In this document: positions 1 to 10,910 of the stretch, in pieces
Position numbering within the stretch: position 1 is the first letter of the stretch
Layout: every line of letters begins with the position of its first letter
Source: a virus
Taxonomy: Duplodnaviria > Heunggongvirae > Uroviricota > Caudoviricetes
IMG/VR virus record: IMGVR_UViG_2859827302_000011
Direction: 5' to 3' (one strand)
Length of the DNA: 10,910 bases
Notes under the pieces: model-generated
Seen by the model: the letters and a program-made list of their open reading frames with translations, nothing else
Told to the model about the DNA's origin: nothing
Database searches by the model: none
Program-made: the position numbers and the translations under genes

Positions 1-504
1 TTACTGATAGTGTTTTATGTTCAGATAATGCCCGATGACCTTGTCATGCAGCTCCACCGATTTTGAGAACGACAGTGACTTCCGTCCCAGCCTTGCCAGA
101 TGTTGTCTCAGATTCAGATTATGTCGCTCAATGCGCTGAGTGTAACGCTTGCTGATAACGTGCAGCTTTCCCTTCAGGCGTGATTCATACAGCGGCCAGC
201 CATCCGTCATCCATACCACGACCTCAAAGGCCGACAGCAGGCTCAGAAGACGCTCCAGTGTGGCCAGAGTGCGTTCACCGAAGACGTGCGCCACAACCGT
301 CCTCCGTATCCTGTCATACGCGTAAAACAGCCAGCGCTGACGTGATTTAGCACCGACGTAGCCCCACTGTTCGTCCATTTCAGCGCAGACAATCACATCA
401 CTGCCCGGTTGTATGCGCGAGGTTACCGACTGCGGCCTGAGTTTTTTAAGTGACGTAAAACCGTGTTGAGGCCAACGCCCATAATGCGTGCACTGGCACG
501 ACAT
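1..504 (-). CDS. insB: IS1 InsB reading frame (transposase moiety, expressed as InsAB' fusion by -1 frameshift)
   Basis: ORF track 167-aa translation ends ...[15 protein letters not shown], characteristic of IS1 InsB; the stop codon is the reverse complement of bases 1-3. Confidence 0.85.
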
Positions 505-698
505 CCGACGCCATTCATGGCCATATCAATGATTTTCTGGTGCGTACCGGGCTGAGAGGCGGTGTAAGTGAACTGTAGTTGCCATGTTTTACGGCAATGA
601 GAGCAGAGATAGCGCTGATGTCCGGCAGTGCTTTTGCCGTTACGCACCACGCCTTCAGTAGCGGAGCAGGAAGGGCATCTGATGGAAATGGAAGCCAC
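423..698 (-). CDS. insA: IS1 InsA (transposition inhibitor / DNA-binding protein)
   Basis: 91-aa translation [43 protein letters not shown]... matches IS1 InsA, including its zinc-finger Cys pairs. Confidence 0.9.
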
Positions 699-833
699 GC
701 AAGCACCTTAAAATCACCATCATACACTAAATCAGTAAGTTGGCAGCATTACCGTAATTTTCGAATTAATAATAAATCAACATATCATTTCACGCTCCGA
801 TTTTCTGTCGGAGGCGAAACTGCGGCTATTCAT

Positions 834-1382: not shown

Positions 1383-1454
1383 TGAAGTGGCACACTGAAT
1401 TTGGCCACCTGAACAGAGGTGATATGCTCACCTCAGAACAACACAGGTGCTCCA

Positions 1455-2623
<1,169 letters not shown>

Positions 2624-2948
2624 CCACTTCAGGTCGGTCATGAGCACTAAATTAACCGGCTATGTATGGGATGGTTGCGCTGCATCAGGCATGAAGTTAT
2701 CCAGCGTGGCAATTATGGCCCGCCTGGCTGATTTCAGTAATGACGAAGGTGTGTGCTGGCCATCAATTGAAACCATTGCCCGTCAGATTGGCGCGGGGAT
2801 GAGTACCGTCAGAACGGCTATCGCACGGCTGGAAGCAGAAGGCTGGTTAACGCGTAAGGCGCGTCGCCAGGGTAACCGCAATGCGTCGAATGTTTATCAG
2901 CTTAACGTTGCGAAGCTTCAGGCAGCGGCATTTTCTCAACTGTCAGAT

Positions 2949-3008
2949 TCTGACCCGTCAAAATCTGACGCATCAAAATCTGACCCGTCAAAATTTGATG
3001 CGTCGAAA
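2949..3008 (+). repeat. Four tandem 15-bp direct repeats (tctgacccgtcaaaa / tctgacgcatcaaaa / tctgacccgtcaaaa / tttgatgcgtcgaaa) inside the replication gene; putative origin iterons
   Basis: Direct reading of the sequence; the repeats encode the pentapeptide reiteration SDPSK-SDASK-SDPSK-FDASK. Further CCGTCAG motifs occur at 5482, 5503 and 5527 beyond the IS, followed by an A-rich stretch. The analogy is to the lambda origin, which lies as iterons inside gene O. Confidence 0.5.
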
Positions 3009-3014
3009 TCTGGC

Positions 3015-3022
3015 AAAAAAGC
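3015..3022. repeat. 8-bp target-site duplication (aaaaaagc), left copy, of the IS66-family insertion
   Basis: Identical octamer at 5464-5471 immediately outside the other IS end; 8 bp is the IS66-family duplication length. Confidence 0.85.
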
Positions 3023-3093
3023 GTAAGCGTACAGCCTGAACCGTCTGGTCAGAATCTGACGAATTAGACAAAGTGGTGTCCACCAAATAAGTA

Positions 3094-3495
3094 GTGGGAA
3101 CCAAAGTGTCAGATATGCAGAAAAATGTGAATCCCGGCAGGCGAAAAGGCTGCCCTAATTATCCTCCCGAATTTAAACAGCAGCTCGTTGCTGCCTCCTG
3201 TGAACCCGGGATATCCATCTCAAAACTTGCTCTTGAAAATGGCATTAACGCCAATCTGTTGTTCAAATGGCGACAACAATGGCGCGAGGGAAAGCTGCTA
3301 TTACCTTCTTCAGAGAGCCCCCAGCTACTTCCTGTGACTCTCGATGCAGCTGCCGAACAGCCAGAATCGCTCGCAGAGGATCCGGAAACCCTCAGTATCA
3401 GCTGTGAGGTAACGTTCCGGCACGGGACGCTCCGCTTCAATGGCAATGTCAGCGAAAAGCTCCTGACTCTGCTGATACAGGAACTGAAGCGATGA
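3094..3495 (+). CDS. tnpA: IS66-family TnpA (orf1 accessory protein)
   Basis: First ORF of the IS66-type triplet, with a helix-turn-helix-like segment (PEFKQQLVAASCEPGISISKLALENGINANLLFKWRQQW); its stop overlaps the tnpB start (ATGA at 3492-3495). Start uncertain: GTG at 3094 or ATG at 3115. Confidence 0.75.
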   Translation: MGTKVSDMQKNVNPGRRKGCPNYPPEFKQQLVAASCEPGISISKLALENGINANLLFKWRQQWREGKLLLPSSESPQLLPVTLDAAAEQPESLAEDPETLSISCEVTFRHGTLRFNGNVSEKLLTLLIQELKR

Positions 3496-3839
3496 TCCCG
3501 TTACCTTCCGGGACCAAAATTTGGCTGGTTGCCGGTATCACCGATATGAGAAATGGCTTCAACGGCCTGGCGGCAAAGGTGCAGACGACGCTGAAAGACG
3601 CTCCGATGTCAGGTCACGTTTTTATCTTCCGTGGGCGTAATGGCAGTCAGGTAAAGCTCCTCTGGTCTACCGGCGATGGACTGTGTCTGCTGACCAAACG
3701 GCTGGAGCGCGGCCGCTTCGCCTGGCCGTCAGCCCGGGATGGCAAAGTGTTCCTCACACCGGCACAGCTGGCGATGCTCCTTGAAGGTATCGACTGGCGG
3801 CAGCCTAAAAGACTGCTTACGTCCCTGACTATGTTGTAA
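3492..3839 (+). CDS. tnpB: IS66-family TnpB (orf2)
   Basis: MIPLPSGTKIWLVAGITDMRNGFNGLAAKVQTTLKDAPMSGHVFIFRGRNGSQVKLLWSTGDGLCLLTKRLERGRFAWP is the highly conserved IS66 Orf2 signature. Confidence 0.9.
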   Translation: MIPLPSGTKIWLVAGITDMRNGFNGLAAKVQTTLKDAPMSGHVFIFRGRNGSQVKLLWSTGDGLCLLTKRLERGRFAWPSARDGKVFLTPAQLAMLLEGIDWRQPKRLLTSLTML

Positions 3840-3887
3840 GCCTCTTTATCCTGGTCGACGCTGAATGAGCCTGGTAATATACCCGGT

Positions 3888-5426
3888 ATGAGCAGCTCAC
3901 TTCCTGACGATATCAATGCACTGAAACGTCTCCTTGCCGAACAGGAGGCGCTGAACCGTGCCCTGCTGGAAAAGCTGAACGAGCGTGAACGCGAAATAGA
4001 CCATCTGCAGGCACAGCTGGATAAGCTGCGCCGGATGAACTTCGGCAGCCGCTCCGAAAAAGTCTCCCGTCGTATCGCACAGATGGAAGCTGACCTGAAG
4101 GCACTTCAGAAAGAAAGTGATACCCTTACCGGTCGGGTTGACGACCCGGCCGTGCAGCGCCCGCTGCGTCAAACCCGCACCCGCAAACCGTTCCCCGAAT
4201 CACTCCCCCGCGATGAAAAACGGCTGCTGCCGGCAGCGTCATGCTGCCCGGAATGTGGAGGCTCACTGAGCTATCCGGGTGAGGATGCCGCCGAACAGCT
4301 GGAGTTGATGCGCAGCGTCTTCCGGGTTATCCGGACTGTACGTGAAAAGCATGCCTGTACTCAGTGCGATGCCATCGTGCAGGCCCCCGCGCCTTCACGG
4401 CCCATCGAGCGGGGTATCGCAGGACCGGGGCTGCTGGCCCGCGTGCTGATCTCAAAGTATGCAGAGCACACCCCGCTGTACCGCCAGTCTGAAATGTACG
4501 GCCGCCAGGGCGTGGAGCTGAGTCGTTCACTGCTGTCGGGCTGGGTGGATGCATGCTGCCGGCTACTGTCACCGCTGGAAGAAGCGCTTCAGGATTATGT
4601 GCTGACTGACGGTAAGCTCCATGCTGATGACACGCCTGTCCCGGTGCTGTTGCCAGGCAATAAGAAAACGAAGACCGGGCGGTTATGGACCTACGTTCGT
4701 GACGACCGTAACGCCGGGTCAACGCTGGCGCCGGCGGTGTGGTTCGCTTACAGCCCGGACAGAAAAGGCATCCATCCGCAGACCCATCTTGCGGGGTTCA
4801 GTGGTGTACTGCAGGCGGATGCATACGCCGGGTTCAACGAGCTGTACCGGGATGGCCGGATAACGGAAGCCGCCTGTTGGGCTCACGCCCGCCGTAAAAT
4901 CCACGATGTGCACGTTCGCACCCCGTCAGCCCTGACGGAGGAAGCGCTGAAACGGATCGGCGAACTGTACGCCATCGAGGCAGAGATAAGGGGAATGACG
5001 GCGGAGCAGCGCCTTGCCGAACGTCAGTTGAAAACGAAACCGCTGCTGAAATCCCTGGAAAGCTGGCTGCGTGAAAAGATGAAAACCCTGTCGCGACACT
5101 CAGAACTGGCGAAAGCGTTCGCATACGCCCTGAACCAGTGGCCGGCGCTGACGTACTATGCAGATGATGGCTGGGCTGAGGCGGACAATAACATCGCTGA
5201 AAATGCGTTGCGGATGGTCAGTCTGGGCCGCAAAAACTACCTGTTCTTCGGTTCGGATCATGGAGGAGAGCGGGGAGCGCTGCTGTACAGCCTGATCGGG
5301 ACGTGCAAACTGAACGGAGTGGAGCCAGAAAGCTACCTCCGCTATGTCCTTGACGTCATAGCCGACTGGCCGATAAACCGGGTCGGCGAACTGCTCCCCT
5401 GGCGCGTAGCACTGCCGACTGAATAA
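3888..5426 (+). CDS. tnpC: IS66-family transposase TnpC (orf3)
   Basis: 512 aa with an N-terminal coiled-coil/leucine-zipper region, a CPECGG...CTQCD zinc-finger motif and a DDE-type catalytic region; length and order match IS66 transposases. Confidence 0.9.
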
Positions 5427-5463
5427 CACATCCCCGTCAATACGGTTCTTGCTGCACGCTTAC

Positions 5464-5471
5464 AAAAAAGC
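5464..5471. repeat. 8-bp target-site duplication (aaaaaagc), right copy, of the IS66-family insertion
   Basis: Identical to 3015-3022. Confidence 0.85.
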
Positions 5472-6030
5472 GGGTTTTCACCCGTCAGAATCTGGCGGGG
5501 ATCCGTCAGTAAAATCAAAACATGATCCGTCAGATAAAAAACCTTCTCGTCCGGACGCTTCGCAACCGGACACGCAGACGGCTGAACAGGATTTTTTAAC
5601 TCGCCATCCTGATGCGGTTGTATTCAGCCCTAAAAAGCGCCAGTGGGGGACGCAGGATGATTTGACCTGCGCACAGTGGCTCTGGAAAAAAATCATCGCC
5701 CTGTACGAGCAGGCTGCCGAATGTGACGGCGAGGTGGTTCGTCCCAAAGAACCGAACTGGACAGCCTGGGCAAACGAAATTCGCCTGATGTGTGTACAGG
5801 ATGGCCGTACTCACAAACAAATCTGCGAGATGTACAGCCGCGTCAGCCGCGATCCGTTCTGGTGCCGTAACGTGCTCAGCCCGTCGAAGTTGCGGGAAAA
5901 ATGGGATGAGCTTTCCCTGCGCTTATCGCCGTCCGTCAGCACGCACACAGAAAAACGTGAAGACCCGTACTTCAAAGCCAGTTACGACAACGTGGACTAC
6001 AGCCAGATCCCGGCAGGATTCAGGGGGTGA
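5464..6030 (+). pseudogene. Phage replication initiator (O-like), 3' fragment downstream of the IS66-family insertion
   Basis: Removing 3023-5463 plus one copy of the 8-bp duplication joins ...SGKKA in frame to GFHPSESGGDPSVKSK..., giving one uninterrupted 313-codon ORF (2640..3022 + 5472..6030). The track ORF start at 5449 is a TTG inside the IS66 end and is not a real start. Confidence 0.7.
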
Positions 6031-6032
6031 GC

Positions 6033-6521
6033 ATGAGTCTTTTGAATGACGTTCAGAAATTCATTGAAGCCCATCCGGGGTGTACTTCCGGAGACATTGC
6101 GGATGCTTTTGCAGGTTACTCACGGCAGCGCGTTCTGCAGTCTGCAAGCAAGTTACGTCAGAGTGGGCGTGTGGCTCACCGTTGTGAAGGAGATACACGC
6201 AGACATTTCCCGCGCCTGACTGAGAGAGCGCAGGAACCGGGACCACAATCAGTTCGAGAAACCAGACCTGTGCGCAATTTCTATGTCGGCACTAACGATC
6301 CCCGGGTGATTTTGTGCCTGACCCGCCAGGCTGAAGAACTGGAGTCCAGGGGCTTATACCGTCGTGCTGCAACGGTGTGGATGGCGGCATTCCGTGAAAG
6401 CCACTCCCAGCCAGAACGAAACAATTTTCTGGCGCGTCGTGAGCGGTGCTTACGGAAAAGCAGCAAGCGCGCTGTATCGGGTGATGAGTGGTATCTGTCA
6501 GGGAATTACGTGGGGGCTTAA
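6033..6521 (+). CDS. Hypothetical protein (162 aa), unassigned; sits in the slot after the replication initiator
   Basis: ATG at 6033 preceded by AGGGGG (6022-6027); its stop overlaps the next start (TAATG, 6519-6523). The N-terminal roughly 50 aa (MSLLNDVQKFIEAHPGCTSGDIADAFAGYSRQRVLQSASKLRQSGRV) look winged-helix-like. I do not recognise the family. Confidence 0.5.
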   Translation: MSLLNDVQKFIEAHPGCTSGDIADAFAGYSRQRVLQSASKLRQSGRVAHRCEGDTRRHFPRLTERAQEPGPQSVRETRPVRNFYVGTNDPRVILCLTRQAEELESRGLYRRAATVWMAAFRESHSQPERNNFLARRERCLRKSSKRAVSGDEWYLSGNYVGA

Positions 6522-7174
6522 TGAGTAATAAATATTGCCAGGCGCTGGTGGAGTTGCGAAACAAACCAGCCCATGAACTGAAGGAAGTGGGCGATCAGTG
6601 GCGCACACCGGACAACATTTTCTGGGGAATTAACACCCTGTTTGGCCCGTTTGTTCTGGATCTGTTTACTGACGGTGATAACGCCAAATGTGCCGCGTAT
6701 TACACGGCGGAAGACAACGCGCTGGCGCATGACTGGTCAGAACGTCTTGCGGAGCTTAAAGGTGCTGCCTTTGGAAATCCTCCATACAGCCGCGCCAGTC
6801 AGCATGAGGGGCAATACATCACCGGCATGCGTTACATCATGAAACATGCCAGTGCCATGCGTGATAAGGGCGGGCGCTATGTTTTCCTGATCAAAGCTGC
6901 CACCAGCGAAGTGTGGTGGCCGGAAGATGCGGATCATATTGCTTTTATTCGCGGGCGTATTGGTTTTGAACTGCCTGCCTGGTTTATCCCGAAAGACGAG
7001 AAGCAGGTGCCAACCGGTGCTTTCTTCGCTGGTGCTATTGCCGTTTTCGACAAGACCTGGAAGGGACCGGCAATCAGCTACATCGGGCGCGATGAACTTG
7101 AGGCATGTGGTGAGGCCTTTCTGGCGCAAGTTCGCCAGCAGGCAGAAAAACTTGTCAGGGAGATGGCGGCATGA
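6521..7174 (+). CDS. Phage DNA N6-adenine methyltransferase (Dam-like)
   Basis: Contains the amino-methyltransferase catalytic motif NPPY (AFGNPPYS); size and position match the methyltransferase commonly found in lambdoid nin regions; start overlaps the upstream stop and its own stop overlaps the next start (ATGA at 7171-7174). Confidence 0.7.
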   Translation: MSNKYCQALVELRNKPAHELKEVGDQWRTPDNIFWGINTLFGPFVLDLFTDGDNAKCAAYYTAEDNALAHDWSERLAELKGAAFGNPPYSRASQHEGQYITGMRYIMKHASAMRDKGGRYVFLIKAATSEVWWPEDADHIAFIRGRIGFELPAWFIPKDEKQVPTGAFFAGAIAVFDKTWKGPAISYIGRDELEACGEAFLAQVRQQAEKLVREMAA

Positions 7175-7497
7175 CGACGTTAACTCAATGCCAGCAGCAG
7201 GTGCTGGATATGCTGATTTCTTACCAGAAAGAACGTGGCTTCCCGCCAACCAATCAGGAGGTGGCAACCATGCTGGGATACCGTTCAGTGAATGCAGCGG
7301 TGGAGCATCTTAGAGCACTGGAGAAAAAAGGCGTCATCACGATAAAGCGTGGTGTGGCCCGTGGTATCACTCTTCATACCGCGGTGAAGGACGACGACAG
7401 CGAGGCGGTCGGGATTATCCGCTCACTGCTTGCCGGTGAGGAAAACGCCAGGCTGCGTGCAGCCCACTGGTTACATGAGAGGGGCCTGAAAGTATGA
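7171..7497 (+). CDS. LexA N-terminal DNA-binding-domain homolog lacking the S24 peptidase/dimerisation domain (108 aa)
   Basis: LTQCQQQVLDMLISYQKERGFPPTNQEVATMLGYRSVNAAVEHLRALEKKGVITIKRGVARGITL aligns by eye with the E. coli LexA N-terminus ([65 protein letters not shown], from memory). The protein ends about 40 residues later, with no Ala-Gly cleavage site or Ser/Lys dyad region. Confidence 0.8.
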   Translation: MTTLTQCQQQVLDMLISYQKERGFPPTNQEVATMLGYRSVNAAVEHLRALEKKGVITIKRGVARGITLHTAVKDDDSEAVGIIRSLLAGEENARLRAAHWLHERGLKV

Positions 7498-7883
7498 AGC
7501 TAATACTGCCTTTTCCGCCCAGCGTGAACACGTACTGGCGACACCCCAACAAAGGGGCGTTTGCTGGTAAGAGCCTGATAAGCGCAGCGGGGCGCAAATT
7601 CCAGAGCGCGGCGTGTGCAGCAATAGTTGAGCAGTTACGTCGTCTGCCAAAACCAACGTCGGCACCTGCTTCAGTGGAGATCGTGTTGTTTCCTCCGGAT
7701 AACCGGATCCGCGATCTGAACAACTATAACAAGGCGCTGTTTGACGCCCTGACCCACGCGGGTGTGTGGGAAGACGACAGTCAGGTGAAAAGAATGCTGG
7801 TGGAGTGGGGACCGGTTATCCCGGAAGGGAAGGTCGAGATCACTATCAGTAAGTACGAGAAACCGGCGGGTGCAGCAGCCTGA
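7494..7883 (+). CDS. rusA: RusA-family Holliday junction resolvase
   Basis: LILPFPPSVNTYWRH and RDLNNYNKALFDALTHAGVWEDDSQV match the RusA motifs (ITLPWPPSNNRYYRH ... [26 protein letters not shown], from memory); start overlaps the upstream stop (ATGA). Confidence 0.9.
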   Translation: MKLILPFPPSVNTYWRHPNKGAFAGKSLISAAGRKFQSAACAAIVEQLRRLPKPTSAPASVEIVLFPPDNRIRDLNNYNKALFDALTHAGVWEDDSQVKRMLVEWGPVIPEGKVEITISKYEKPAGAAA

Positions 7884-7902
7884 TTAAGAGGAGAAACGAA
7901 GT

Positions 7903-8700
7903 ATGAATAATCTGATGGTTATTGATGGAATTGAAGTTCGTCGTGATGCTTATGGGCGTTACAGCCTGAACGATCTGCACAGGGCTGCTGGTTCTCTGGA
8001 TAAGCATAAGCCTGCATTCTGGCTCCGCAATGAGCAAACTGAACGTTTAATAAGCGAGTTGCAGATTTGCAACTCGGTCAATATAGAACCAGTTAACGTT
8101 ATTCGTGGCGGAAATAACCAAGGGACGTATGTCTGCAAAGAACTGGTGTATGCCTATGCAATGTGGATCAGCCCGTCATTCCATCTGAAGGTGATCCGTA
8201 CTTTCGACATGGTAACCAGTGCACCGGAAAAATTATCCGGACAGGCTGCTGACAAGATGCAGGCTGGTGTGATTCTGCTGGACTTTATGCGCCGGGAATT
8301 AAACCTGTCTAACTCTTCAGTGCTTGGAGCCTGTCAGAAACTCCAGGAGGCTGTTGGCTTACCGAATCTGGCACCGCGCTATGCCATTGATGCTCCTGCT
8401 GACGCGCCTGATGGCTCAAGCCGCCCCACGCTGTCACTGAGTGCACTGCTGAAGCAGTATGGTATCCGCCTTACGGCTAATCAGGCATATCACCAGATGG
8501 CGAAGCTGGGGATCGTCGAACAGCGCGAACGATACAGCCGTACAGCGATTAACAACATCAAAAAATTCTGGTCGCTGACAGCGAAAGGCTGCATGTTCGG
8601 CAAGAATATCACCAGTCCCGCAAATCCGCGTGAGACGCAGCCGCATTTCTTCGAATCCCGATTCCCTGAGCTGTTAAAGCTGCTCGATACCGTTCATTGA
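7903..8700 (+). CDS. KilA-N domain protein (Roi/antirepressor-like), 265 aa
   Basis: The N-terminal region (MVIDGIEVRRDAYGRYSLNDLHRAAG...KPAFWLRNEQTERLISEL...YVCKELVYAYAMWISPSFHLKVIRTFD) has the KilA-N fold signature; an AGGAG ribosome-binding site precedes the ATG at 7903; this is the usual position for a roi-like gene in a lambdoid nin region. Confidence 0.7.
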   Translation: MNNLMVIDGIEVRRDAYGRYSLNDLHRAAGSLDKHKPAFWLRNEQTERLISELQICNSVNIEPVNVIRGGNNQGTYVCKELVYAYAMWISPSFHLKVIRTFDMVTSAPEKLSGQAADKMQAGVILLDFMRRELNLSNSSVLGACQKLQEAVGLPNLAPRYAIDAPADAPDGSSRPTLSLSALLKQYGIRLTANQAYHQMAKLGIVEQRERYSRTAINNIKKFWSLTAKGCMFGKNITSPANPRETQPHFFESRFPELLKLLDTVH

Positions 8701-8701
8701 G

Positions 8702-9697
8702 GTGACCGTGAGAGCACTACTGCCCCCTGAAATTGCCCCGCGTATGGGGATCGTATTGTTCAGACCAGGTTCAGAGCTGATGCCCCTGTTTATGCAGGGG
8801 CGTGTCCTGCTGGAGCCTGAGCCGGAACGTTATTCATCTTTCGCCAGTGGTGCTGTTCCGGCGGCATCACAACCGCTGGCGGATGATCCTGACGTTCGGG
8901 CCGTGTTCCGCAATGAGGCAGTGATCCGTCGTGCTGGTGGCGTGGAATGTCTTGAAAGCTGGTTACTTCGTGAAAAAGGCTGCCAGTGGCCTCATTCCGA
9001 CTGGCACAGCGAGAACATGACAACAATGCGACACGCGCCGGGCGCAATCCGTCTGTGCTGGCACTGCGATAACCAGCTGCGCGATCAGTTCACGGAACGG
9101 CTGGAATCAATGGCAACGGATAACTGTGCCCGCTGGGTGTTGTCTGTTGTGCGTCGGGATCTCGGTTTTGATGATAGTCACGTTGTGACAATGCCGGAAC
9201 TGTGCTGGTGGCTGATTCGTAATGACCTGGCGGATGCCTTACCGGAAAGTGCAGCCCGTAAGGCACTGAGATTACCGAAGCCTGTTGTGCCGTCTGTCAC
9301 CCGGGAAAGTGACCTTGTGCCTTCGGTTCCTGCCACCAGCATCATCCAGGATAAGGTGAAAAAGGTGCTGGCGCTGAAAGTGGATCCGGAGTCGCCGGAG
9401 TCTTTTATGTTACGCCCAAAACGTCGCCGCTGGGTTAATGAAAAGTACACACGCTGGGTTAAGACACAGCCGTGTGCATGTTGTGGAAAGCCTGCTGATG
9501 ATCCCCTCCACCTGATAGGCCACGGTCAGGGGGGAATGGGTACAAAAGCGCATGACCTCTTTGTGTTGCCTTTGTGCAGAAAGCATCACGACGAGCTGCA
9601 TGCGGATACCGTGGCATTTGAAGAGAAGTATGGTTCCCAGCTGGAGCTGATATTTCGTTTTATCGATCGTGCGCTGGCAATAGGCGTACTGGCGTAA
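8702..9697 (+). CDS. DUF968-like prophage protein with a C-terminal HNH-like Cys/His motif
   Basis: The C-terminus carries CACCGKPADDPLHLIGHGQGG...LPLCRKHHDELHAD, an HNH-like metal-binding arrangement, and resembles the prophage protein family that includes Qin YdfU (recollection, not searched). Start ambiguous: GTG at 8702 or 8708, or ATG at 8744. Confidence 0.6.
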   Translation: MTVRALLPPEIAPRMGIVLFRPGSELMPLFMQGRVLLEPEPERYSSFASGAVPAASQPLADDPDVRAVFRNEAVIRRAGGVECLESWLLREKGCQWPHSDWHSENMTTMRHAPGAIRLCWHCDNQLRDQFTERLESMATDNCARWVLSVVRRDLGFDDSHVVTMPELCWWLIRNDLADALPESAARKALRLPKPVVPSVTRESDLVPSVPATSIIQDKVKKVLALKVDPESPESFMLRPKRRRWVNEKYTRWVKTQPCACCGKPADDPLHLIGHGQGGMGTKAHDLFVLPLCRKHHDELHADTVAFEEKYGSQLELIFRFIDRALAIGVLA

Positions 9698-9710
9698 GTG
9701 GAGAACGAGC

Positions 9711-10463
9711 ATGAACCTTGAAGCCTTACCGAAATATTACTCCCCGAAATCTCCAAAACTGAGCGATGACGCACCGGCGACAGGCTCTGGTGGTTTAACG
9801 ATTACGGATGTGATGGCTGCGCAGGGGATGGTGCAGTCGAAAGCACCGCTTGGGTTTGCCTTATTCCTGGCAAAAGTTGGTGTTCAGGATCCTCAGTTTG
9901 CGATTGAAGGTCTGCTCAATTACGCGATGGCACTGGATAACCCGACATTGAATAAATTGAGTGAAGAAACCCGGCTACAGATCATTCCTTACCTTGTGAA
10001 TTTTGCCTTTGCTGATTATTCTAGGTCTGCGGCAAGTAAGGCTCGCTGTGAGCATTGTGCTGGTACTGGATTTCATAATGTATTGCGCGAGGTGGTGAAA
10101 CACTCCAGAAGCGGGGAATCTGTTATCAAGGAAGAGTGGGTGAAGGAACTATGTCAGCATTGTCATGGTAAGGGAGAAGTCAGCACAGCGTGCAGAGGGT
10201 GTAAGGGTAAAGGTATTGTCCTGGATGAAAAAAGGACCCGGCTTCATGGCACGCCTGTTTATAAGATTTGTGGGCGTTGCAATGGAAACCGGTTTAGCCG
10301 TTTACCAACTACACTGGCACGACGTCATGTCCAGAAGCTGGTTCCAGACCTGACTGATTATCAGTGGTACAAAGGATATGCAGACGTAATTGATAAACTA
10401 GTAACAAAGTGCTGGCAGGAAGAAGCATATGCTGAAACACAATTGAGAAAGGTGACGAGATAA
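9711..10463 (+). CDS. Q: Late-gene antiterminator Q, phage 82 / QuuQ type (250 aa)
   Basis: The N-terminus (KYYSPKSPKLSDDAPATGSGGLTITDVMAAQGM) and C-terminus (LTDYQWYKGYADVIDKLVTKCWQEEAYAETQLRKVTR) match phage 82 Q as I recall it; central Cys-rich zinc-binding region; ribosome-binding site GGAGAA upstream; followed by a promoter-terminator pair in the expected late-promoter position. Confidence 0.85.
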   Translation: MNLEALPKYYSPKSPKLSDDAPATGSGGLTITDVMAAQGMVQSKAPLGFALFLAKVGVQDPQFAIEGLLNYAMALDNPTLNKLSEETRLQIIPYLVNFAFADYSRSAASKARCEHCAGTGFHNVLREVVKHSRSGESVIKEEWVKELCQHCHGKGEVSTACRGCKGKGIVLDEKRTRLHGTPVYKICGRCNGNRFSRLPTTLARRHVQKLVPDLTDYQWYKGYADVIDKLVTKCWQEEAYAETQLRKVTR

Positions 10464-10494
10464 GTGATTTTCGCCGAAGATGGCGACATGAAGC

Positions 10495-10523
10495 TTGCAT
10501 TTTTCAAAAAACATGGATAAGAT
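10495..10523 (+). promoter_or_regulatory. Putative Q-dependent late promoter pR' (-35 TTGCAT, 17-bp spacer, -10 TAAGAT)
   Basis: Sigma70-like hexamers at 10495-10500 and 10518-10523, directly after Q; the downstream string ctcaacgatggg resembles the initial transcribed region of the phage 82 late promoter as I recall it. Not verified. Confidence 0.45.
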
Positions 10524-10569
10524 TTTCTCAACGATGGGCTTTGTATGTCTGCCGTTGATAATTTTCACG

Positions 10570-10596
10570 AACCCGCTGTTGAGCGGGTTTTTATTT
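10570..10596 (+). terminator. Rho-independent terminator (putative tR')
   Basis: Perfect 8-bp stem aacccgct / agcgggtt (10570-10577 and 10582-10589) with a 4-nt loop, followed by tttttattt. Confidence 0.7.
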
Positions 10597-10601
10597 ACTT
10601 G

Positions 10602-10910
10602 GGTAATGACTCCAACTTACTGATAGTGTTTTATGTTCAGATAATGCCCGATGACCTTGTCATGCAGCTCCACCGATTTTGAGAACGACAGTGACTTCCG
10701 TCCCAGCCTTGCCAGATGTTGTCTCAGATTCAGATTATGTCGCTCAATGCGCTGAGTGTAACGCTTGCTGATAACGTGCAGCTTTCCCTTCAGGCGTGAT
10801 TCATACAGCGGCCAGCCATCCGTCATCCATACCACGACCTCAAAGGCCGACAGCAGGCTCAGAAGACGCTCCAGTGTGGCCAGAGTGCGTTCACCGAAGA
10901 CGTGCGCCAC
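10602..10910 (-). mobile_element. IS1: IS1 insertion sequence, copy B (only the first 309 bp are in the window), same orientation as copy A
   Basis: Starts with the IS1 terminal repeat GGTAATGACTCCAAC (10602-10616); 10617-10910 is identical to 1-294. Confidence 0.95.
10617..10910 (-). CDS. insB: IS1 InsB reading frame, 3' portion (cut by window edge)
   Basis: The 97-aa translation is identical to the C-terminal part of the InsB frame of copy A. Confidence 0.85.

Follow-up and report, generated by a model that had tools for sequence, protein, structure and literature searches.

Interruption of a probable lambda-O-type replication initiator gene by ISEc22 in a Shigella prophage remnant

One close counterpart of the locus analysed here is the O gene of bacteriophage lambda with ori-lambda. 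In both, the initiator has two domains, repeats lie within its gene in the part that encodes the linker between them, an A+T-rich stretch follows the repeats, and the C-terminal domains are homologous. Phages SfII, SfIV and Kati carry an orthologous gene followed by the same genes in the same order through Q; the gene is intact there, whereas it is split by ISEc22 here. In SfIV, orf41-45 have been termed the replication module (PMC3851460), and 8-bp target duplications have been reported for IS66 (PMC6778807). The window, i.e. the whole stretch of 10,910 nucleotides that was analysed, is 100% identical to CP026828.1, the source of which is labelled S. dysenteriae and clusters with S. boydii (PMC10501659). 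We propose, with a probability of about 90%, that ISEc22 transposed into a lambda-O-type initiator gene and duplicated the 8-bp target AAAAAAGC. The gene would have belonged to a lambdoid prophage resembling SfII, SfIV and Kati, of the type to which yfdO-yfdN of E. coli K-12 CPS-53/KpLE1 also belongs.

Only two copies of the octamer AAAAAAGC are present in the 10,910-base window, one at 3015-3022 and the other at 5464-5471, and the minus strand has none. The two copies flank a 2441-bp element exactly as the earlier note had placed them, to the base. The match between the flanks is exactly 8 bp long and breaks down at 9 bp or more, and an 8-mer would agree by chance between two given sites with a probability of 4^-8 = 1.5e-5. 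Both the window scan and the comparison with other ISEc22 copies identify these unstranded octamers as the left and right copies of a target-site duplication. In-silico excision, in which 2640-3022 is joined to 5472-6030, restores a frame of 942 nt, i.e. 313 codons and a stop codon, and the join contains FDASKSGKKAGFHPSESGGDPSV just as the earlier note had written it. With the IS and one octamer removed, the product is 99.8% identical to a single uninterrupted allele among complete E. coli genomes. Phage Kati represents the empty site. Its sequence is 100% identical to window 2631-3023 and 97% identical to window 5463-9693, and on the Kati sequence these two flank matches share 10 nt (1606-1615), corresponding to a single octamer and one shared base per end; the octamer is present once in this uninterrupted gene.

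Five other ISEc22 copies, all 2441 bp long, share the ends GTAAGCGT...ACGCTTAC and differ in the duplications that flank them (GAAAAGCT, AATCAACC, AAACAATT(A), AGATATTC and AAATGACC). These duplications are perfect over 8 bp in four of the five copies and 9 bp long in the remaining one. Because the same ends are kept while the flanking duplications differ, the octamer is a target-site duplication. It had been raised in the earlier note that the octamer might belong to the IS termini; in that case, or if it were a chance match, the element would have other boundaries and no clean excision could be made. Nothing beyond this prior possibility speaks for it, and it is refuted by the identical terminal bases of the five other copies and by the count of octamers, only two in the window and one in the uninterrupted gene, so that its probability is practically nil. 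Another explanation is that two ISEc22 copies lying in different O genes or loci recombined homologously and thereby joined the gene halves, the octamers being coincidental or secondary. IS-IS recombination is indeed rampant at this locus: the ISEc22 copy has later recombined in six of the eight large related assemblies, leaving hybrid flanks (left ATTGGAAA, right AAAAAAGC), and a second ISEc22 copy in a sister assembly has no matched duplication. However, the flanks in the window form a perfect 8-bp direct repeat, the octamer occurs once at the Kati empty site, and excision restores the 942-nt frame with near-complete identity to one allele, so that a recombinant would have had to re-create the original configuration. 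We consider such joining highly improbable and favour direct transposition into the gene.

The inserted element (3023..5463, plus strand) is 99.6-99.7% identical over 2441 bp to RefSeq-annotated ISEc22 copies, as against about 90% to ISEc8, and has intact tnpA, tnpB and tnpC genes. The name is that of the RefSeq label, 'IS66-like element ISEc22 family', on the transposases of near-identical copies. Its terminal inverted repeats of about 22 bp are imperfect (GTAAGCGTACAGCCTGAACCGT at 3023-3044 and GTAAGCGTGCAGCAAGAACCGT at 5442-5463, 19/22 matching), and both begin with GTAAGCGT. GTAAGCG termini are typical of the IS66 family. The accessory protein gene tnpA (3094..3495, plus strand) encodes 133 aa from GTG or 126 aa from ATG at 3115 and matches Pfam HTH_Tnp_1 and, above cutoff, NCBIfam NF047595. 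The second accessory protein gene, tnpB (3492..3839, plus strand, 115 aa), matches Pfam TnpB_IS66 (E 9e-38) and, above cutoff, NCBIfam NF033819. The DDE transposase gene tnpC (3888..5426, plus strand, 512 aa) is intact and matches Pfam DDE_Tnp_IS66 (E 7e-107), zf-IS66, LZ_Tnp_IS66 and IS66_C as well as NCBIfam transpos_IS66 NF033517 (465 bits, above cutoff). Three genes with an IS66-type DDE tnpC, GTAAGCG-type termini, the 8-bp duplication and near-identity to known copies place the element in the IS66 family, in agreement with the earlier note, and more precisely identify it as ISEc22. With ISEc22/ISEc8 of E. coli and Shigella, the element in the window shares the length of 2441 bp, the tnpA-tnpB-tnpC order, the GTAAGCG... 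termini and the 8-bp duplication, and it is one more ISEc22 copy without substantive difference.

The insertion leaves two gene fragments. The 5' part, O' (2640..3026, plus strand), is translated into 128 aa that comprise a winged-HTH DNA-binding domain (Pfam HTH_36, residues 23-70, E 4e-11) and the repeat-encoded linker. Its 128 residues are followed by a TAA stop codon at 3024-3026, which the IS contributes, since its sequence opens with G followed by TAA. The 3' part, 'O (5472..6030, plus strand), encodes the remainder of the linker and a C-terminal domain homologous to that of lambda O, is 97% identical to Kati and has no start codon of its own; an ORF called mechanically from TTG at 5449-6030 starts within the IS. 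Full-length homologues that run uninterrupted across the junction are numerous. For the reconstructed gene, 14 phage records (Kati, SfII and SfIV among them) contain such orthologues, which align along the whole 942 nt and are 97.8-99.4% identical in nucleotide sequence. Among 5426 complete E. coli genomes, 1576 carry the gene, the best match being 99.8% identical.

The reconstructed protein (residues 1-313) matches the PHROG 391 'replication initiation O-like' profile over positions 1-298 of 298 (E 9.4e-136). Pfam PF04492 Phage_rep_O, which lambda O matches at residues 22-115, gives no match in this protein; Pfam finds HTH_36 instead, with weak DnaD_N and RP-C matches. The C-terminal domain matches no family in Pfam or NCBIfam, and the PDB sequence search returned generic MarR-type HTH matches only. 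Because Pfam, NCBIfam and PDB gave nothing specific, a direct BLASTP comparison was needed to show homology to lambda O. It aligns residues 70-277 with lambda O 78-270 (E 8e-26, 31% identity over 216 aa), and the conserved blocks are WGT..DLT..W, WAN.IRLM..DGR.H and FW..NVLSP.KLR.KW. The designation as an initiator gene thus stands and can be narrowed to the lambda-O type by the full-length PHROG match together with BLASTP. Judged from its sequence, the interrupted gene appears to be O-like in architecture and C-terminal domain, with a different DNA-binding module. No helicase-loader gene of the lambda P, DnaC or DnaB type lies beside O in the window or in the corresponding region as annotated in SfIV and Kati. 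The downstream PerC-family (yfdN-like) gene has no similarity to lambda P and was rejected as its analogue. Since phages of this group lack a loader gene after O, they may replicate by a mechanism that deviates from lambda's in detail. No sigma-70-like promoter was found in 2300-6100 against 1.7 expected, which lends no support to expression of either fragment but is a weak test.

Five iteron-like units with 13-bp palindromic cores GTCAnAnTCTGAC lie at 2942..3014, starting at 2942, 2957, 2972, 2987 and 3002, i.e. with 15-bp spacing. TRF describes the array with a period of 15, 4.3 copies and a score of 86, and a scan with the core pattern gives 10 matches against 0.12 expected, with none of 200 shuffles reaching this. 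Unit 4 (2987-2999, GTCAAAATTTGAT) has two mismatches and is backed by the repeat-family search and TRF only, not by the pattern scan. Unit 6, GTCAGAATCTGGC (5484..5496), was found by both the repeat-family search and the pattern scan and now lies 2.4 kb away from units 1-5 (none of the units is assigned a strand). The IS is therefore placed between units 5 and 6 of a six-unit array of 15-bp period in the inter-domain linker, and the earlier note was right that the linker/iteron region had been struck. Directly after the repeats comes the A+T-richest 40 nt of the gene (5509..5548, unstranded, GC 0.325), which equals Kati 1652-1691 and is a candidate unwinding region. The annotated iterons of lambda occupy the same relative place in O. 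Consistently, the repeats co-vary with the N-terminal domain in mosaic relatives: in mEp460 both the N-domain and the repeats are different and the C-domain is the same, and in phiNP both the N-domain and the repeats are the same and the C-domain is unrelated. Homology and architecture point to the repeats as candidate iterons and to the region as a predicted origin.

The gene could alternatively encode an HTH transcription regulator, with the repeats merely coding for a low-complexity linker (SDPSK/SDASK). Pfam recognises generic HTH families only (HTH_36, GntR and PaaX), NCBIfam gives nothing specific, the RefSeq name is only 'helix-turn-helix domain-containing protein', and there is no adjacent loader gene. 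However, the C-terminal domain is homologous to that of lambda O, the PHROG 391 match is full-length, and the O-like gene of intact relatives follows cro and cII-like genes and precedes Q. Furthermore, the repeats are palindromic in the DNA and switch with the N-domain, as expected of iterons and not of a mere linker. A regulator is thus quite unlikely, and we retain the lambda-O-type initiator. By analogy with lambda, its N-terminal winged-helix domain would bind the linker repeats, which would serve as iterons, the C-terminal domain would bring in the replication machinery, and the DNA would open at the A+T-rich stretch after the array. The insertion would cut the initiator down to a 128-aa DNA-binding stub, and the 2.4-kb IS would leave five iterons on one side and the sixth, with the A+T-rich region, on the other, destroying the origin in cis. 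Because the IS lies inside the linker repeat array, it may reasonably be expected on the lambda model that the protein and the origin within its gene are both lost, as the earlier note had thought probable.

There is, however, no prophage that the insertion could have left replication-defective, as had been concluded before. The host segment is a 7.9-kb O-to-Q prophage remnant in the Shigella chromosome, bounded by an IS911-like junction and IS1. In an intact lambdoid prophage, the modules for integrase/att, immunity, replication, Q, lysis and structure are contiguous; here the stretch from O to Q is all that is left. The IS911-like element of the IS3 family (1383..2631, plus strand) ends 8 nt before the O start codon and has no 3-bp duplication (CTT vs GGT), and its left neighbour differs in the sister assembly; it is a junction formed by recombination, through which the immunity/pR side was replaced. 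Because it replaced everything upstream from -8 of O, the remnant has no cI, cro, cII-like gene or pR, and it contains no integrase or structural genes either. A holin gene and a truncated endolysin gene lie out of place upstream. The rest of the remnant (6027..10463, plus strand) comprises the PerC-family gene and genes for a Dam methylase, a LexA-like protein, RusA, a KilA-N protein, a DUF968/HNH protein and the Q antiterminator, and is collinear with Kati and SfIV. One IS1 copy (1..753, minus strand) starts 15 nt before the window and is a direct repeat of a second copy (10602..10910, minus strand), which closes the remnant after Q; chromosomal genes are found on both flanks within 10 kb. 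At least four IS events belong to the continuing decay of the prophage, and the ISEc22 insertion is one of them.

The suggestion that the insertion is probably recent does not hold. The IS/'O (right) junction is common to at least 22 contigs from several Shigella-type assemblies. The carrier assemblies are CP026807, CP026825, CP026828, CP026832, CP026840, PSSQ01, PSST01, UYIT01, AKNG01 and AERM01. Because it is shared by several assemblies, some of which (six of the eight large ones) have recombined since, the insertion must be older than the split between those strains. Genome contigs, a set of species representatives that does not include the carrier strains, contain no exact match to the left junction (O'/IS) or to the IS911/O junction, and metagenome contigs contain none to the left junction. 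ISEc22 lies beside the O-like gene in none of the 5426 complete E. coli genomes, though 1576 have the gene. Contigs with the exact 128-aa product were rejected as independent insertions, since their ends show empty-site sequence (GCGG, GCGGG, GCGGT); contigs starting near the octamer have empty-site context as well and thus reflect assembly breaks, not IS junctions. Two contigs end exactly at AAAAAAGC, which may be an IS junction or an assembly break.

The sole item of potential wider interest is that the iteron core recurs without mismatch, as GTCAGAATCTGAC, in the left end of the IS (3048..3060, unstranded; IS nt 26-38), where the pattern scan found it; 4e-4 exact matches are expected in the IS. 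The same 13-mer occurs in ISEc8 too. The insertion site might then be non-random and link the IS66-family element to a phage origin, either if the array mimics a subterminal IS66 transposase/TnpA site and captures the transpososome or if the O N-domain or the 128-aa stub binds the IS end. We give such a link a small chance. None of the five other ISEc22 sites has an iteron-like motif within 300 nt, and these sites, together with the 5426 genomes, disfavour the idea of an insertion hot spot; the one event observed speaks for chance. If the 13-mer is not due to chance, it would bear on how IS66-family elements choose their targets, which is poorly understood. A preference for end-like targets has been described for IS30 and IS911, and the proposed mimicry by the iteron array would be comparable to it.

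The ISEc22 insertion is real and clean, but of an ordinary kind, and its meaning lies mostly in annotation. The 128-aa HTH protein and the 193-aa orphan ORF of gene callers are one pseudogene, properly labelled a lambda-O-type initiator interrupted by ISEc22, and the locus is a prophage remnant. The IS copies with hybrid flanks are a marker of inversion history among strains of the S. dysenteriae/S. boydii cluster. Compared with lambda, the protein has HTH_36 in its N-domain in place of Phage_rep_O, and no P-like gene follows the O-like gene. Where lambda has four iterons of 18 bp, the array here is made up of six palindromic cores of 13 bp, spaced 15 bp apart. E. coli K-12-type strains carry a 5'-truncated copy (query 234-942) adjoining yfdN, which we take to be yfdO in the cryptic prophage CPS-53/KpLE1, whereas the gene is split by ISEc22 here. 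The locus is a textbook instance, and a clean example to work through, of how insertion sequences drive the decay of prophages in Shigella: a prophage has been cut, truncated and rearranged by IS1, an IS911-like element and ISEc22, and IS copies without target duplications mark the recombination junctions.

Across both strands of the window, the octamer AAAAAAGC has just two copies, at 3015-3022 and 5464-5471. As the earlier note had claimed, the two copies flank a 2441-bp element (3023-5463). The repeated stretch measures 8 bp and no more: one further base on either side gives a mismatch. The element ends in imperfect terminal inverted repeats (19 of 22 bases matching), each starting with GTAAGCGT, and encodes three intact proteins that score above the curated Pfam and NCBIfam cutoffs: an IS66-type TnpA (tnpA, 3094-3495), TnpB (tnpB, 3492-3839) and a DDE transposase of 512 residues (tnpC, 3888-5426). 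Full-length identity to many E. coli copies, with the RefSeq transposase name "IS66-like element ISEc22 family", is 99.6-99.7%, in agreement with the proposed IS66-family assignment; ISEc8 is about 90% identical to the element. Five other ISEc22 copies are 2441 bp each with identical terminal bases, and each is surrounded by its own duplication, namely GAAAAGCT, AATCAACC, AAACAATT(A), AGATATTC and AAATGACC. Because these copies share the same ends but differ in their duplications, the octamer is a target-site duplication lying outside the IS and not a part of its termini. Consistently, a duplication of 8 bp has been reported for IS66 (PMC6778807). When AAAAAAGC, GAAAAGCT, AATCAACC, AAACAATT, AGATATTC and AAATGACC (the window and loci L011-L015 of the other copies) are compared in IS orientation, positions 1-3 are A-rich and the final base is a pyrimidine. 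ISEc22 may therefore have an oriented target preference, but six sites are too few to judge.

Joining 2640-3022 to 5472-6030 produces a 942-nt ORF of 313 codons plus stop, which contains the junction peptide quoted in the earlier note. At present, the 5' part of the gene (O') encodes 128 residues followed by a TAA made by the first bases of ISEc22, and the 3' part ('O), a C-domain fragment, lacks its own start codon. Escherichia phage Kati represents the empty site: window 2631-3023 aligns to it at 100% identity and window 5463-9693 at 97%, and the two matches share 10 nt of the Kati sequence, corresponding to a single octamer plus one common base per end. Full-length homologs across the junction are abundant. 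The excision product is 97.8-99.4% identical over 100% of its length to 14 phage records, among them Kati and Shigella phages SfII and SfIV, and is matched at 80% coverage or more in 1576 of 5426 complete E. coli genomes (best identity, 99.8%). In K-12-type strains, a 5'-truncated copy adjoins yfdN; we take this copy to be yfdO of the CPS-53/KpLE1 cryptic prophage.

The assignment as a replication initiator is borne out by an end-to-end match to PHROG 391, "replication initiation O-like" (E 9e-136), and by BLASTP against lambda O (E 8e-26, residues 70-277), in which the C-domain blocks are strongly conserved. The only Pfam domain in the reconstructed protein is a winged-helix HTH_36 (residues 23-70), and Phage_rep_O, a model limited to the N-domain of lambda, does not match it. 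Together, these matches argue for a protein that is O-like in its architecture and its C-domain but carries another DNA-binding module. The C-terminal domain of lambda O is its P-binding part. No helicase loader gene of the lambda-P, DnaC or DnaB type follows the O-like gene in this phage group, be it in the window, in the Kati locus or in locus L002; its place is taken by a yfdN-like gene (window 6027-6521; Kati locus 2176-2664; L002 6939-7433). The yfdN-like protein of 164 residues combines a winged helix at its N-terminus with a PerC-like C-terminal part, and shows no similarity to lambda P.

The insertion had been considered probably recent, a view that its distribution does not support. 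At least 22 contigs carry a 193-residue ORF that spans the right end of ISEc22 and 'O and is specific to this junction; they fall into 14 collection blocks having contigs longer than 1 Mb. The carriers include CP026832, S. dysenteriae 14 ATCC 49346 (PMC10132075). In six of eight large assemblies (L021, L022, L024-L026 and L028; IS at about 7575-10015 of each locus), the 'O-side ISEc22 has ATTGGAAA as its left flank in place of O' and AAAAAAGC on the other side, with no O' fragment within 10 kb. In the sister assembly PSSQ01, ATTGGAAA flanks a second ISEc22 copy in inverted orientation, and the 'O-side element has therefore recombined with another ISEc22 copy after insertion. The original O'-IS-'O order, complete with matching duplications, survives only in CP026828 and PSSQ01. 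Thus, the insertion is older than the divergence of its carrier strains, despite the intact element and the perfect duplication. The hybrid-flank ISEc22 could serve to mark rearrangements in this Shigella cluster. ISEc22 does not adjoin the O-like gene in any of the complete E. coli genomes. Many short-read contigs from unrelated samples (L005-L010, L016 and L017) end or begin 0-3 nt from the insertion point and carry the empty-site sequence; the "protein" of 128 residues is listed in 38 collection blocks. Apart from L005 and L006, which stop exactly at AAAAAAGC, these contig ends probably reflect assembly-graph forks where the N-domain/iteron module has a mosaic boundary.

CP026828.1 matches the window at 100% identity; its assembly, GCF_002950015, carries the label Shigella dysenteriae and groups with S. 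boydii (PMC10501659). The immunity region upstream of O is absent from the window. An IS911-like element of the IS3 family (1383-2631) stops 8 nt short of the start codon of O, has no 3-bp duplication at its flanks (CTT versus GGT) and connects O with a truncated endolysin and a holin. Because its left neighbour differs in PSSQ01, this element marks a recombination junction, not a simple insertion. An IS1 at the window start lies in direct orientation relative to the IS1 located 3' of Q, and chromosomal genes lie less than 10 kb away on both sides. From our reading of their Pfam domains, these are the folD-cysS-purEK side and the gcl-allR-allA side. The locus is a 7.9-kb O-to-Q remnant with 3.7 kb of IS, which would be incapable of replication, excision or lysis even if O were intact; the claim that the insertion left a replication-defective prophage is therefore not supported. 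Taken together, Q-IS1 on the right (9711-10910) and IS1-holin-endolysin' on the left (1-1398) have the same Q-IS1-lysis order as phage SfIV (PMC3851460). The lysis fragment therefore resembles a continuation of the right end after circular permutation. This is consistent with duplication and deletion, or with exchange between two related prophages. In several sister assemblies (L021, L022, L026, L028 and L029), the DUF968/HNH gene (equivalent to window 8702-9697) is shortened to 220-236 residues versus 329-331, and in L028 the ISEc22 transposase and the PerC-family gene are broken too. These changes are additional, independent decay events in the same remnant.

The linker of the O-like gene contains a 15-bp-period array (TRF score 86) of 13-bp palindromic cores, GTCAnAnTCTGAC. 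Units 1-5 lie at 2942-3014 and unit 6 at 5484-5496; a pattern scan found 10 matches against 0.12 expected, and none of 200 shuffles scored as high. Unit 5 directly precedes the first base of the duplicated octamer, placing the insertion in the linker/iteron region as proposed. Phage mEp460 has the same C-domain with a different N-domain and repeats, and Citrobacter phage phiNP has the same N-domain and repeats with an unrelated C-domain (Phg_2220_C). The repeats thus travel with the DNA-binding domain, which supports our reading of them as iterons. The same scan revealed an exact core, GTCAGAATCTGAC, at nt 26-38 of ISEc22 (window 3048-3060). By chance, 4e-4 exact matches are expected in the whole element, and none of 2000 shuffles gave a match with up to one mismatch in the first 200 nt. 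GTCAGAATCTGAC is also present in ISEc8 (L031 226-238), whose first 108 nt are identical, whereas a more distant member of the IS66 family lacks it. Because the motif is absent near the five other ISEc22 targets, nothing points to a general target rule, and no second ISEc22 insertion at the O-like gene was found in E. coli genomes. The core is a probable coincidence; it is also the sole lead with any novelty.

The feature is real, it was precisely described and its core interpretation is correct; that an already known IS sits in a gene of known type in a public Shigella genome is ordinary biology. The insertion splits the array 5 + 1, so that 2.4 kb now separate the putative unwinding region from the main cluster of iterons, and would leave the initiator as a DNA-binding stub of 128 residues. 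In lambda ori, origin function in cis is abolished by small deletions in the iterons or the A+T-rich region, and for this reason both the initiator protein and the putative origin should be dead. The C-domain is homologous to that of lambda O, whereas the Phage_rep_O N-domain belongs to lambda and HTH_36 to the protein of the window. Downstream of unit 6 comes the 40-nt stretch with the highest A+T content in the gene (GC 0.325), and lambda has four annotated iterons and an A+T-rich stretch in the same relative place in O.
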